A stretch of 37,078 bases of DNA from a virus (Duplodnaviria > Heunggongvirae > Uroviricota > Caudoviricetes). A program made the position numbers. The stretch lies in IMG/VR virus record IMGVR_UViG_2537562172_000008; one strand, 5' to 3'. Positions within the stretch are counted from its first letter, which is position 1, and each line of letters begins with the position of its first letter. Positions 18,001 to 24,000 of the stretch are shown in pieces.

Positions 18001-21000
18001 TTAGAAATCAACTTGTCGCCACCGATTTCTTTGTCAGCTTTTACATCCGCAGCCCACTGCTCTGTTGTTTTCTGCCAGGCTTCTGCCTGGCGCTGCTGAA
18101 CACCTGCCAGAATCTTCGGATAAGCATCAACCAGCTTTTGCGCTTGTTCGTTGGTCAGGTTAAGTTCTCGCGCCACCGGCTCGAATTCCTTCAACGCTTC
18201 TGTATCCAGCTCTACGCCTTCGGCAGCCTGAAACTCGTACTTCTCAGGCGCCCCCTCTGGTTTATCGCCGTCCTTTTTTTCATCCTGCTTATCGTTTTCA
18301 GGCTTTTTGTCATCAGCAGGTTTATCGCCATCAGCAACAGGTTGTGGCTTATCACCTTCCTGTTGTGATGGATCACCAACTGGAGCAGGGTTATCACCTG
18401 CAGGCGCTGACGGTTCTGACGCAGCCGGAGCTGCTCCACCATCGACTGGTTGCTCATTGCAAAGACAGCGATACAGCAAACGCTCAAATAAATTCATGAT
18501 CACTCCTGTTCACTGGCCTCTTTGGCCATCTTCAAATACTGTTCAGGGCAATGCGACATAACGCGCTGAAACAGTTCCAGCGCCAGATTGCGTTGCCCCT
18601 CATTAAATGCCATTGCCATAGCGTCCATCGGTGAGATAGCGGAAAACACACGGCCTTTCTCCAGCACCGACCAGACAACGCGACGCCCCTGTTCACTGCT
18701 CATGACAAAGCGAATGTCATCAATTTCACGCTGCGCCATGTCACGTTGCTTACGGGCGTTTTCTTCTTTCAGTTGATCGTCTTCGTAATCTGTCATTGTG
18801 ATTGCCCACCCTGACCACTAACTGCATTCGCCATAGCTGACAAAACACTCGGATCCGAAGTTTTAGCTTCGCTTAGCGTCTTGGCACCCTGTGCCGCCGC
18901 CATCCCCATCGCCATCATTTGTTGCTGCTGTTGCTGCTGTGCCCGTTGCTGGCGAGCCTGCTCAACCTGTTCCTGCGGAACAATGACGGTTGGAGACACT
19001 CCAGACATATCAGCGAATGCATCGATCGCCTGATCAACGTTGAGTTTGTCGAGAGCTTCTGGTTTCGCTTGCGCAAGTTGACCAATGAAGTTAACCGTGG
19101 ACGCCAGACTGGACAGGCCGATAGACTTCTGCGCCTGAGCCATGACGGAAATGTATTCGACCTTCAGGGGCATGCCTTCCATCGCGTCAGGCGGTGGCGG
19201 CAACATGTTTTTACGCACCATCATCGAGAAAGCGCGGTCAATGAGAGGATTAAGACATTCGTCGTTCAGACGCTCCAGAACCGGCCCCAACATCAGAAGT
19301 TTTTCTTCTTTCATTTCGATCACCGCTTCAACAGGCATCGAGCGGGTATTGATGTTCTGCAACATCATGAACAGATCGACAAAGTAGGCGCTGTTAATGA
19401 TTTGACGAGTGTCCTGAATGTCTGCCACCAAATCTGCTGTACTGGGGTTAACCAGATAAGCAGGCCTGAAGCCATCCTGACCAGTAATCTGATCGATATA
19501 CGTGATGTCGCCAGGAAGAAGGGAGGCGCGCTGATTCTTGAGGGAAGTCGGAGCAACCATCGGCGGATTGGTGGCTTTATCAATCAACTGCGACTTGCGC
19601 TTCTGGAGAAGCTGCAATGCCTTAACAGGTCCAAGCGCCAGCATACCCGGGCATGATGATCCATAAACATCTTCGCCGTTAACTTCCCAGCGCGGAGCCA
19701 TAATTGGAAACTCATCGAATCCGGACTCACGCAACAACTTGTCGTTATCGCCACCAACCTCGTAATAAACCGATTTGAATGGCTTGTTCTTGCTATCCAG
19801 CTTCGATGTATCGCGGTCAATGTTCGGGTAAACCGAATGCATCACTTCGATCCACTTCTCGTAGGTGCCGCTTTCCCACATGCTTTTTACGGATTCGCTG
19901 ACGTTATTTAGCCCGAACTCCTGAACAAGCTGACGAACAGTCATAGAGAACTTGCGAAAACAGGTATCCACACTTCCACGAGGTGAGTTAGCCAGGTAGT
20001 AACTGCCTATCGGGAATGGCATTGTGCGAATAATGTCCTCGTCATCTTCCAGCACTGCCATTGCACCAGTGCTGTATGTGCCGAGGCTTCCGTATAACTG
20101 CGGCAGCGACTGATAGAGATTCGACTTATTGAACATATCGTTCATGCGGTTCTGCACCGCCTCAAGCCACAACTTAACAGGGCCATAATCCATCATTTCA
20201 GGATCTGGCGTAGCCAGGCGAAACCACGGACGCGCGGGGCTTGTGATGCCTGACATCATGCCGCTGGCGAGAGTGCGCGCTGCCATAGTCCCGGTCGAAT
20301 CAATAATTCGTGTATTGCGTCGATCGTTACGGTTGACCTCAGAAGTCAGAAAGCGGGAACCACGCGGGTTGATGTAATCACTCAACTCGCGCCAGTGCGG
20401 CTCGAACGACTGACGCTCGCTTTCAAGTTGTGCGAACTGTTTGTTCAATCGCTCTTTAGTTGTTTCCGCCATTTCAATGACTCCGGTTACTGACCAAGCA
20501 GCGTTTTACCGCTGGTATTAGCGGTTGATGTGTCGCCCTGAGAACCGGTAAGCAGCGTAGAACTACGACCAGCAGCAGCGCGACGGCGACGAGTTTCTTC
20601 GTCGCGGGCATCAACAACGGCGGCATCCTGCTCCTGTGGTGCTGCCTGAACTTCTGGTGTTGCAGGCACTGACGGTGAGCTACCCATGCACATATCAATG
20701 ACTCCGTACGCAATTAAATTATTACCAATTTAACCACATATGATTTATTTATCGTAGATAGTTGACATTTAACGCACGAATTATTACCTTTCAGGTAACC
20801 AAAGAGTTCATTCCGGTTATTAACCTGACTGGCTTGTCGTTAAATTGAACAGGTGGAGTGAGCTTTTATTTTGAGCAGTACGGCGTATGGCACATGCGCC
20901 GATAGCGGTCTGGATACGTTTAAGGGGCACCCTCCCTTGCTCGGGCAAACGAACCAGGTAGCCGGAATGTGCAAGTCGAGCGGTTTTATTCCGCGCACGG

Positions 21001-24000
21001 GGATTCACCATCCCGGCGATTCGGTGTGACGCCTCGGAAGAGACGAGGGTACAACGATGAGAGCATTTATGGAGCCGCGACAAAATGTGGCGCCTTAACA
21101 GGCTAAGTGCTCTCAGCGTTGTGGCATTAGCTCAGTTGGACAGAGCAACCGCCTTCTAAGCGGTTGGTCGCAGGTTCGAATCCTGCATGCCACGCCAGAA
21201 TCACGCCTAAGGACCGTGATGCCAGAAGTTCCAGGGGCTTGGCGGTGATGGTTTCCCTTGAAGGACTACCACCGCCCTTTTTACAGCAGGACGCCATTGC
21301 GATGACTTCATGCTGTAAACCAGTACAGCCACGGAAGGCATAACTCATTGCTTCCAGTTCGCCCGGTTCGCCGGGCATTTTTTTAAGGTGAGATTATGAA
21401 CGACCAGCAAATCGAAAAAGAAATCGTTGAGAAAGGCAAAACGGCACCGCGCGTTACGCCAGACCATATCGAAGGCATTATTGCTCAGGAGGCATATTTC
21501 ACAGCAGAAGATGGTGCCTTTGGCAAAGCCATAAAAGCGAAACATACTGGCGGAGAGGTAAACTACCAGCCGCACGAATCACTTTCTCTGCTGACGTTCT
21601 GCGTCCTGGTGCTGCGCAACGGCTTCACCGTCACCGGAGAGAGCGCCTGTGCAAGCCCGGAAAACTTTGATGCAGAAATTGGTCGGAAGATTGCCCGGCA
21701 GAATGCTGTAAACAAAATCTGGATGCTCGAAGGTTACTTGCTGAAGCAGAAGCTAAGCGAGCAATAACACCGTGACATGTCACAAACAGCCAGCCGATGA
21801 GCTGGCTTTGTTTTATCCTCATCAGAGGATATCAACGACATTATCCCAACCAGCGGATTAAGCATAGGGATCGTAATCTGTGATGGCCTTGCCTTGCTGG
21901 TTCTGCTGCCCGGGAATTCGCAGACGCTTAGACACAGGGAACGCAAACGTCAGCAGTAGCGCATCGCCTTTACCCGGCGAACGCCCAAGCCGCTCCTTGA
22001 TATCTTCCTTCGGTTCGATAACGATTTTACCATCCACTCGAACTTTGTACTCTGCCGCCGACAGGTCGTCTGCTGTTTCCTGGTCATCCAGCATGCCGCC
22101 CAGCCTCAGCCATGTCTTGCATGAATTGAACATCTCCCCACGCTTGTTGAGCATCTGCGGGTCAGTAGACGCGCCACCGAACGGAACAAGTTGCCATGTA
22201 CGACCCCATCCGTCACCGATTGACTTCAGACCGGTTCCGTAACCGAAGTCGATGAACACCGCGTCAGCCTGATACTGGTCTTCAAAGTCAGCGATACGCT
22301 TCGCCATAATCAGATCGTCGGTAGTCTTGTTGCCAGTCCACAGCACCTTACTGTGTAGCCCCTGCCGCAGGTATATCACCGCGTCATCAACGCCTGAATA
22401 TGCCGGGTCAACACCGATTATCACCGGAGCATGCGCCACCTGCGCAGCGGTTACCACCCGTTTCATTGCCTCATCAGTAAGACCGGTAGGGATAAACTGC
22501 AATTCAGATGCATCAGGGAATATGCCGCGCACACGGATTTTAACGAAGTCGCTGTCTTCCCCGTAGTCATCAACCCATTTCTGCAACTGCTGTTTGTTAG
22601 TTCCTTCCACCGTCCGGCTGTCAATCTGCGCAGTTTTCCAGCGGTGTTTATATTTGCGGAAACATTCGCGGAAACGCCCGGTGTTACGTGTAGGGTTTCC
22701 GAACGCTACCCAGATAATCTCAGTGTCTTCGTCCGTAAGCGCACCCTCAGCAACTTCCCACACCAGATCCGCAATGTTCGACGCTTCATCGAATACCACG
22801 ATGATGCGTTTGCGCTCGTTGTGTAGTCCGGCGAACGCCTCAGTGTTGTGCTCAGACCAGGGGATTGCGTCAGCGCGCCACCGCTTGTCGTGCCCAGGAT
22901 CATTGCTGTACATCGCGGTAGCGGTGCAGGTGAACCAGTCTTTCGTGATAGCAAGGTTCGACCACTTGATAATTTCCGGCCAGGTCTTCGTTCGTAGCTG
23001 GTTGTCGGTGTTGGCGGTCACCACGACCTTACAATCCTCGCAAGTGGACATGCCCCAGTTGATCAGCATTGAGATGAATGCGGATTTACCAATACCGTGA
23101 CCAGAAGCGCGTGCCAGCATAAGCGGCTGATAGCGCGTCTCTGGATTCTGCAGGTGATCACGTATCTCTCGGAACGCATCGGCCTGCCACTGACGTGGAC
23201 CGGTGGCGTGCGCCAGCTCTGTGCCTTCCTCGCCCCACGGAAACGCATACAGCGCATAGCCCAGCGGGTCATACGTGAACGAGGCGATATCCTCGACGAG
23301 TTGCTCTTCCGGCGACATGGCTGCGGCTGTCATTCTTCACCACCAGCCTGCTCTATGACGCGGCGCCGGGCGGCGGCCATGCGGTCGGCGATGGTGACCG
23401 TGCCGGAAACCTCCAGGCGCTCTTTGAACGCGTTAACGTCGACGTGCTTACCAATCAGTTCGAGGTTCTTCACCTTGTCAGGCCATTTAATTTTTTTGAG
23501 GATTGTCTCTATCGAATCCTCGTTCATGTTCATGATGGTCGATGACAGATCAAAGCCACTAAGCGTAGTGCGCCAGATTTTCGGCCACTCGCGGATTGGC
23601 TTAAGACTCCCATCGTCGTTGAGGATATCAATCACGTCCATCTGGTCGATCTCCACCAGGCGCATGAGAACGTAATCAGCACTGACGCGCATTCGTTTGT
23701 TGCGCTCCTCCATCAGCTCGGCAATCCGTTTTTGAATGCGTTCATCGCGCATCATGACACTGGCTTTAACTGCCGCTGTATTTGGGGAGAATCCTGCGTT
23801 AATCGCTGCCTGAGTCTGGTTTTCAGGCGTTTTGATGTATGACTGGCAATAAGCCTCCTGCATTGCTGTTAGTGGCTTAAATTGCGTTGATTTGCGTTTA
23901 TAGGTTTTAGGTTCAGCAGGCATCATAACCACCGTGGTAATAGTTACCGTTGTGGTAATAGTACCATGCAAAATAAAGCCGCCATAGTTGGCGGCAGTAT

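Follow-up and report, generated by a model that had tools for sequence, protein, structure and literature searches.

The present analysis reveals that the non-coding leader of a small plus-strand unit in IMG/VR virus record IMGVR_UViG_2537562172_000008 (37,078 nucleotides; this whole stretch is hereafter called the window) is a conserved, base-pair-covarying structured RNA of about 243 nucleotides (nt), lying at 20878-21120. The unit (20720-21857) is most likely transcribed early, as a single transcription unit, and kept silent by the repressor in the prophage. It consists, in order, of a promoter with operator, the structured RNA (243 nt, domains 1 and 2), a tRNA-Arg(UCU), a tail with two intrinsic terminators, an Acb4-family gene, and a third terminator (Table 1). 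The tRNA, the terminators, and the protein family are already known. The RNA itself appears to be undescribed, with no Rfam family, no GenBank/RefSeq feature, and no match in the full-text literature, and for it there is a real chance of a new mechanism. A preliminary description of the window had regarded the leader as a generic, GC-rich one with several short hairpins. Instead, it belongs to a widespread, independent RNA family, and its GC richness is only mild (52.6% over 20790-21120 and 57% over 20878-21120 vs 49% for the window). We favor the reading that it would be a stable early RNA released by RNase P, to which we give a probability of about 0.4.

As a plus-strand RNA, the leader folds better than its shuffles (z = -4.4). 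Covariation was tested with a hand-derived structure on 34 distinct sequences. Standard pairs filled 94.6% of the cells, vs 30-50% when the 3′ partners were slid by one to three columns, and double-sided changes were found in 13 of the 26 pairs, giving 79 such cells vs 22.5 in shuffles. Pair 8:20 of helix H1 is G-C in 17 sequences and A-U in the other 17, and H2, H4, and H5 contain three to four doubly changed pairs each. The loop pairing CACC/GGUG becomes AACC/GGUU in four sequences; therefore, the pseudoknot is supported as well. H6, which encloses a hypervariable insert (35-200 nt across copies), shows compensatory variants, and its mean duplex energy is -22.8 kcal/mol for true partners vs -18.3 for cross-paired strands. 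The last G of H6 doubles as G1 of the tRNA (G21121). G-U pairs, which would be C-A mismatches on the other strand, are frequent; therefore, the RNA is placed on the plus strand, as is the tRNA. A kissing pair between the H1 loop and the junction (GCAC/GUGC), proposed by RNAalifold as an alternative, was not supported: its two sides are near-invariant, and the variants AUGCGC and AUAUGC are uncompensated.

A covariance model of domain 1 (model R1) gave a single match in the window, at 20878-21052 with 144.9 bits. The exact 19-mer of the junction, GGTAGCCGGAATGTGCAAG, was present in at least 120 IMG/VR contigs, and these gave 47 versions less than 93% identical to one another. When copies were collected by a different anchor (H5), 106 of 129 still kept the exact 19-mer, and CCGGAATGTGCAAG was almost invariant. 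For a junction that is not paired, such conservation suggests either a particular fold or a particular partner. With Rfam 15, both at the gathering score and at E values up to 10, the window gave the tRNA alone, and a lambdoid copy of the element remained without a match at a permissive threshold.

A coding role for the leader was considered and rejected. Its open reading frames (ORFs) had no match in Pfam, and the insertions and deletions in its variable parts are not multiples of three. Domain 2 does contain a 13-codon ORF, MRAFMEPRQNVAP (21057-21098, plus strand), with AGA as its second codon and GAGG upstream, and the cdtI-type copies share it with AGG replacing AGA. This small ORF is confined to one insert type; 26 of the 73 distinct copies have no ATG there, and lengths vary from 2 to 53 codons. 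It is probably fortuitous, since it is absent or differently long in most other variants.

The window phage is a phiV10/epsilon15-like podophage. About 1.8 kb around the unit are 96.8% identical to phage phiV10 and to Escherichia coli O157 typing phages 9 and 10 (genus Uetakevirus), in whose records the tRNA-Arg and a hypothetical protein are annotated at the unit and the leader carries no feature. Sensitive BLAST with 20760-21125 showed that the core (about 20880-21042, often to 21124) recurs at 70-83% identity in unrelated phages whose flanks are not conserved. The carriers include lambdoid phages (cdtI, mEp460, Stx2c and some Stx2a converting phages), the phage-plasmids P1, P7, D6, SJ46, and RCS47, relatives of epsilon15 from Klebsiella, Enterobacter, and Salmonella, and one phage with Stenotrophomonas as its listed host. 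The element is annotated in none of the BLAST-matched phage records. Among complete E. coli genomes, 1840 of 5426 (34%) carry it, at 1920 places on chromosomes and 554 on plasmids, and among the E. coli matches listed, the neighboring tRNA-Arg and one hypothetical protein were the only annotated features. In species-representative bacterial genomes, all loci that passed the model belong to Enterobacterales; other 16-mer matches in bacterial genomes failed it and are due to chance.

Of the roughly 150 loci compared, nearly all fall into three contexts, epsilon15-like, lambdoid, and P1-like, and the three phage types share no protein next to the element. In epsilon15-like phages, the element is followed by tRNA-Arg or a non-tRNA domain and then by the conserved tail with terminators T1 and T2. 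In lambdoid phages, its place is downstream of cI. Past the cI terminator of cdtI comes TTGACA-16-CATAAT together with the operator ATGTACCCTTGAGATACAT, which recurs in the cI-cro region as ATGTACCTCCGATATACAT; since this operator is shared, the promoter is taken as PL. The cdtI element begins about 30 nt past the likely transcription start and is succeeded by a 110-nt domain, two terminator-like hairpins, and yfdP, the first ORF, which is not N-like. In P1-like phages, domain 1 belongs to the ban operon, which C1 controls; it stands 14 nt past tRNA-Ile(CAU) and is separated from ban by about 90 nt, and in some of their relatives the element closes an array of four or five tRNAs. A shortened element directly precedes an rdgC-like gene in loci L257 and L299, with neither a tRNA-like domain nor terminators. 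In three unrelated phage types, the element thus follows an early promoter under repressor control and behaves like a module of its own.

Two reduced or altered arrangements were also encountered. SfV and Flotzy keep a cdtI-type PL, the terminators, and yfdP; domain 1 is absent, and another sequence takes its place. This leader after PL reads ACAGGCAGGA(A/C)GCCCACGAAGTAGCCGCC...GGATGATTCG (SfV, L253, about 1500-1600; Flotzy, L254, about 1895-1965). Model R1 did not match it, despite short strings reminiscent of domain 1, and it may be an alternative or reduced module. Epsilon15 itself (L004, 2548-2639) has only the first 60-90 nt or so of the element (41.8 bits, partial) and no tRNA, which looks like a deletion remnant.

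The putative promoter of the unit in the window has a -35 box TTGACA (20762-20767), a 17-nt spacer, and a -10 box TACCTT (20785-20790). A consensus promoter scan did not call this site (20762-20790), because its -10 box is weak. The operator palindrome TTACCTTTCAGGTAA (20784-20798) overlaps the putative -10 box, and a half-site, AATTATTACC, is present at 20717-20726. The motif TTACC-N5-GGTAA occurs at 10 sites in the window vs 0.63 expected; the sites are often paired, about 50-60 bp apart, and flank a helix-turn-helix (HTH) repressor gene (29880-30464). This gene corresponds to the repressor studied in phage ZX5 (PMC9782041). The arrangement TTGACA-17-TACCTT with the palindrome is kept in related loci, and the epsilon15 record has repressor and IHF sites annotated at the equivalent place. 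Because an operator palindrome overlaps the -10 box, it is most probable that the unit is not expressed in the lysogen and is turned on early.

This bears on the view that the unit is an ordinary moron, in which the leader hairpins are incidental and only the tRNA and the small protein matter. The tRNA and the ORF are indeed real, and use of AGA is raised in phage genes. The word moron, in the sense of Hendrix, implies a promoter and a terminator of its own and expression from the repressed prophage, and is a poor fit here; a promoter and terminators do exist, but the position of the operator argues against expression of the unit in the lysogen. Incidental hairpins would also have to account for a leader that stays 70-83% identical and acquires compensatory changes in unrelated phages while its flanks do not persist, and for its presence in a third of complete E. 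coli genomes. We therefore regard this view as very improbable.

The tRNA at the end of the RNA is well supported. ARAGORN found one tRNA in the window, for Arg with anticodon TCT, as had been proposed, and Rfam RF00005 scored it at 73.3 bits vs a gathering score of 29. Both G73 and the CCA end are encoded in the gene. Codon use over the 34 ORFs of the window gave 6.5 AGA and 3.6 AGG per 1000 codons, that for AGA being about three times the E. coli value. Both codons cluster in 291-14987 (tail and conversion genes) and in the early region; the head, portal, and terminase genes have next to none, and no AGA. The earlier suggestion that the tRNA supplies rare codons is plausible, and the pattern agrees with such a supply to one part of the genome. 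Alternatively, the tRNA-Arg could replace a host tRNA hit by a defence nuclease.

A tRNA or a tRNA-like domain usually adjoins the element. In every phiV10-like locus, the tRNA-Arg abuts the element at a fixed offset from the 19-mer. In other copies, the sequence after H6 runs GUU and then GUGG, at the point where the window has G21121 as G1 of the tRNA. Where the tRNA is lacking, GUGGUGA pairs with (U)CACCAC 95-200 nt downstream in an acceptor-like stem. The (U)CACCAC strand comes directly after a 5-bp hairpin, GCCGG-AGAUCAGCA-CCGGC, and is followed by A and then by ACC, CCA, or ACA. This layout matches that of a T-arm and the acceptor stem on which it stacks, followed by a discriminator base and a near-CCA tail, and in locus L272 the domain is clearly recognizable as a tRNA containing a large insertion. 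The tRNA-like domain is found in lambdoid PL leaders and in epsilon15-like phages without a tRNA, and it occurs without domain 1 in SfV and Flotzy. An example with GUGGUGAAU, a hairpin, variable hairpins, GCCGG-AGAUCAGCA-CCGGC, and CACCAC-AAC lies at 2744-2860 of L003, and the domain also stands downstream of the element in L005, L008, L015, L017, L057, L072, L074, and L099. The phiV10-like tRNA-Arg thus fills the position that other carriers give to a tRNA derivative, and the tRNA-like domain may itself be an RNase P substrate.

In the reading that we favor, the structured RNA would be a product in its own right and more than a leader. RNase P would cut between CGUU and G, at the 5′ end of the tRNA or, in other phages, of the tRNA-like domain, leaving a discrete RNA with its 3′ end enclosed within the 16-bp H6. 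Most transcripts would end at T1 or T2, and the fraction that reads through would make the sponge encoded by the Acb4-family gene. The released RNA would then act in trans early in infection. RNase P prefers U at position -1, and the junction has U there. We favor a stable RNA because of its tie to tRNAs, the exact junction with U at -1, and the 3′ end buried in H6; because T1 and T2 are conserved while the cargo gene behind them varies or is lost; and because the module comes and goes independently in PL leaders. The company it keeps, namely sponge genes, a rare-codon tRNA, and early operons, points to counter-defence or host takeover, although this anti-defence setting is a lead and not evidence.

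Several observations weigh against such a released RNA. In L257 and L299, the element is a plain 5′ untranslated region of the rdgC-like gene, and P1 has domain 1 only, about 90 nt upstream of ban; a precise RNase P 3′ end could therefore not be universal. In lambdoid phages, PL is separated from all early-left genes, xis among them, by the RNA and two terminators, and in this early-left region neither an N gene nor a second promoter was found, an arrangement that is awkward without read-through. It is also odd that a sponge gene, whose product acts stoichiometrically, should lie behind two strong terminators. Furthermore, any trans target of the RNA is pure conjecture.

The three terminators proposed earlier for the unit were all recovered, T2 and T3 by a terminator scan and T1 by folding, the scan having missed T1 because its loop is too long. 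The tail with T1 and T2 is kept in all epsilon15-like loci, whatever the cargo. The T-run of T2 ends about 12 nt before the ATG of the 123-aa ORF, with the ribosome-binding site AAGGTGAG (21385-21392) in between, and a promoter scan of 21198-21395 found no promoter-like site. Since T2 abuts the ribosome-binding site and leaves no room for a sigma-70 promoter of its own, the ORF depends on read-through, in agreement with the preliminary description.

A second reading also survives, to which we give less weight than to the favored one: the element may be a cis-acting processive antiterminator like put of phage HK022, the nascent RNA binding its own polymerase, which would then resist T1, T2, and Rho. 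The tRNA and the sponge gene would thereby be expressed, and in lambdoid phages the whole early-left operon. Such a function suits an element that in every context precedes the first ORF of an early operon under repressor control and that, in lambdoid phages, occupies the nutL/putL position, some 30 nt past the PL start and ahead of two terminators, in carriers without an N gene or a downstream promoter. The cdtI genome has Q and no N gene was found in it; YfdP was considered as a hidden N, but it is an acidic protein with neither an arginine-rich motif nor a Pfam match. T2 of the window is near-ideal and stands 12 nt ahead of a promoterless gene. The distance to the downstream genes, 40-600 nt, fits a distance-independent mechanism. 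Moreover, the 3′ strand of H6 is boxA-like (UGCUCUY) and is followed by a GU-rich run; L257 reads UGCUCUUUCUGUUGUGUGGGG here. However, these boxA-like bases form pairs within H6 that covary; a boxA/boxB reading of this strand and the next hairpin is therefore a hint only.

The element and put are both phage RNAs placed right after an early promoter, in N-less lambdoid phages, with terminators next and with no partner phage protein. In contrast to put, which has about 70 nt, two stem-loops, and two copies, the element is three to four times larger (about 245 nt), has at least six helices plus a pseudoknot, abuts tRNAs, and is present in epsilon15-like phages and P1 as well. With filters switched off, model R1 gave a best score of 6.1 bits (E 0.8) over the whole HK022 genome, with no match at the put sites, and by eye only short strings are shared; homology to put is thus rejected. 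HK022 has both putL and putR, whereas the element is present once per genome: cdtI gave one model match, and neither the window nor cdtI has a second, putR-like copy. Further difficulties for antitermination are that an RNase P site directly downstream would sever the RNA from the polymerase, that a terminator-resistant polymerase would pass T3 into the converging terminase gene, and that locus L067 has no gene left to read into.

Tandem terminators ahead of a gene, together with conserved tail hairpins, could also be seen as a local attenuator or sensor, in which leader and tail would respond, for instance, to how much tRNA-Arg is present or charged, or to ribosomes stalled on a leader peptide, and switch T1/T2. 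The 13-codon ORF in domain 2, with its AGA codon and upstream GAGG, would offer such a peptide, but it exists only in copies of one insert type. Moreover, between the element and the terminators there is a tRNA or a domain of 100-200 nt, terminators are wholly absent from some copies, and no T-box or riboswitch was matched in Rfam. We therefore consider attenuation improbable.

An equally improbable role, in our judgment, is that of a protective or processing 5′ module, whose stable fold would guard against RNase E and 5′-end-dependent decay or organize processing by RNase III or RNase P. The element is indeed always found where early transcripts begin, or close by. An RNase III processing site is annotated just upstream in epsilon15, on the stretch equivalent to the long 5′ hairpin (20802-20868), which is absent from some relatives (L067, L123). 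For protection, a simple hairpin would suffice; the near-invariant unpaired junction (exact in 106 of the 129 copies) and the pseudoknot point instead to a specific tertiary fold or partner.

Table 1. Features of the unit at 20720-21857 and its surroundings (window coordinates)
Feature	Position	Strand	Basis or details
Putative early promoter and operators	20717-20798	+	Sequence, operator statistics, conservation in relatives
Long 5′ hairpin, optional in the family	20802-20868	+	Fold, epsilon15 annotation, locus comparison
Domain 1 of the structured RNA	20878-21052	+	Covariance model R1, covariation test, alignments
H1	20881-20888 paired with 20894-20901	+	Domain 1
H2		+	Domain 1; TCTGG/CCAGG around variable subdomain
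Near-invariant junction (19-mer)	20957-20975	+	Domain 1; GGTAGCCGGAATGTGCAAG; variable hairpin follows
H4		+	Domain 1; GGGAT/ATCCC; loop CACC pairs with downstream GGTG (pseudoknot)
H5		+	Domain 1; CCTCG-GAAGAGA-CGAGG
Domain 2	21052-21121	+	H6 closing stem around hypervariable insert
H6 (about 16 bp)	21052-21067 with 21105-21121	+	CAACGATGAGAGCATT with AAGTGCTCTCAGCGTTG; duplex energies, alignment
tRNA-Arg(UCU)	21121-21197	+	ARAGORN; Rfam tRNA
Conserved non-coding tail	21198-21384	+	Terminator scan, fold
Tail hairpin	21200-21220	+	ATCACG/CGTGAT; fold
Terminator T1	21241-21276	+	Then CUUUUU; fold of tail
Two further tail hairpins	Within 21198-21384	+	Fold
Terminator T2	21361-21376	+	GCCCGG-TTCG-CCGGGC, then A-T7; terminator scan
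Acb4-family (PF13876) gene, 123 aa	21396-21767	+	Pfam match; ribosome-binding site AAGGTGAG, 21385-21392
Palindrome, then terminator T3	21771-21816	+	CGTGACATGTCAC, then T3 (21788-21807, then TTGTTTTAT); terminator scan, motif count
TTACC-N5-GGTAA sites	4186, 20784, 23926/23944, 27417/27479, 29762/29810, 30522/30584	palindrome	Motif count
Portal gene	18793-20472	-	Other side of the unit, beyond the 68-aa ORF
68-aa ORF	20487-20693	-	Between the unit and the portal gene
Large terminase gene	21858-23333	-	Borders the unit on one side

The gene behind T2 firmly belongs to family PF13876. In Pfam, its 123-aa product matched PF13876 (Phage_gp49_66) with an E value of 8.6e-35 and 119.5 bits (cutoff 27) over profile positions 1-82 of 82; this hidden Markov model search bears out the earlier, hesitant assignment to the N4 gp49/Sf6 gp66 family. 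When PF13876 received its name from these two proteins, it had no known function, which it has since gained as the Acb4 family. Acb4 of phage SPO1 belongs to the same family and is a tetrameric sponge for the cyclic dinucleotides of cyclic oligonucleotide-based antiphage signaling systems (CBASS), and all eight Acb4 homologues assayed bound 3′3′-cGAMP (bioRxiv 10.1101/2024.12.30.630793). A phmmer search against solved structures linked our protein to SPO1 Acb4 (PDB 9E4W, E 0.0062) with the ENFxxEIGR motif aligned. The reported pocket of SPO1 Acb4 comprises K36, F48, E49, V56, Y57, F62, N63, I66, T70, and K81 (bioRxiv 10.1101/2024.12.30.630793). Of these, F48, F62, and I66 are kept in the window protein; E49 is replaced by T, V56 by C, Y57 by A, N63 by D, and T70 by I, while K36 and K81 fall outside the stretch aligned to 9E4W. 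Our protein differs from Acb4 in an N-terminal extension of about 25 aa and in the ligand contacts E49, Y57, and T70. It is a predicted cyclic-dinucleotide sponge against CBASS.

In a survey of the ORF after T2 in 35 related loci, the cargo proved to be varied: Acb4-like and Tad2-like proteins, several other families, and a membrane protein of about 290 aa were found, and L067 has only an 8-codon stub. The Tad2-like (PF11195) anti-Thoeris cargo, matched with E values of 4e-26 and 3e-24, occupies the identical slot after T2 while belonging to a protein family other than that of the window ORF. Tad2-like cargo was seen in a Klebsiella relative (L006, 2511-3032) and in two IMG/VR contigs (L093, L104). 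The slot after T2 is therefore a cargo hotspot for anti-defence genes, and the other families found in it are candidates for new ones.

The palindrome CGTGACATGTCAC, which precedes T3, has three copies in the window (4557-4570, 21771-21784, and 24036-24049) vs 0.04 expected. Two of them lie just past the stops of both plus-strand units, and one is beside the start of the small terminase gene; the palindrome is also kept after the cargo slot in L067. It could be a protein-binding site or a roadblock. The 68-aa ORF next to the unit is conserved as well (phrog_831, E 2.4e-36) and equals epsilon15 gp3.

The unit had been called the only plus-strand one within the minus-strand late region; in fact, there is a second, small one at 4185-4570. 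It has the operator ATTACCTTTCGGGTAAT, then a LexA-box-like TACTGTATAAATATACAGTT (4237-4256), an 85-aa ORF (ATG at 4277, to 4534), a terminator, and the palindrome CGTGACATGTCAC. This second unit looks like an SOS-controlled small regulator, possibly an antirepressor.

Phages and prophages are known to carry structured RNAs beside tRNA genes, such as GOLLD, ROOL, and the T4 stable RNAs C and D, which are expressed in lytic growth. The present element shares with them the neighborhood of tRNA genes. It differs from them in having no Rfam match, in its Enterobacterales hosts, and in its fixed place behind repressor-controlled early promoters, and it is much smaller than GOLLD and ROOL. In eukaryotes, the tRNA-like structure downstream of MALAT1 (mascRNA) lets RNase P form the 3′ end of the RNA; the likeness to the favored reading is an analogy of mechanism only and not homology. 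The full-text literature, covered also for sequence strings of the element and for work on put/HK022, phiV10/epsilon15, P1 ban, tRNA-like RNAs of prophages, and SfV, gave no description of it, and a preprint on Pas small RNAs concerns other RNAs. Tentatively, and with somewhat less confidence than we place in the favored reading, the element may found an undescribed class of phage RNA, either an RNA-only antiterminator much more complex than put or a trans-acting RNA for anti-defence or takeover with a 3′ end made by RNase P.

Thus, O157-typing phages, P1, and lambdoid phages that convert their hosts to Stx or Cdt production share a highly conserved and strongly covarying RNA that every annotation pipeline passes over. 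In phiV10-like phages, a common "hypothetical protein" can be relabeled as an Acb4-family sponge, and the slot behind T2 is a place to seek new anti-defence genes. Both readings of the RNA are directly testable in P1, a standard laboratory phage. If antitermination is true, it would explain early-left expression, including excision, in many N-less lambdoid prophages. If the RNA acts in trans, it would add an RNA part to early counter-defence cassettes, for which so far only proteins are known.

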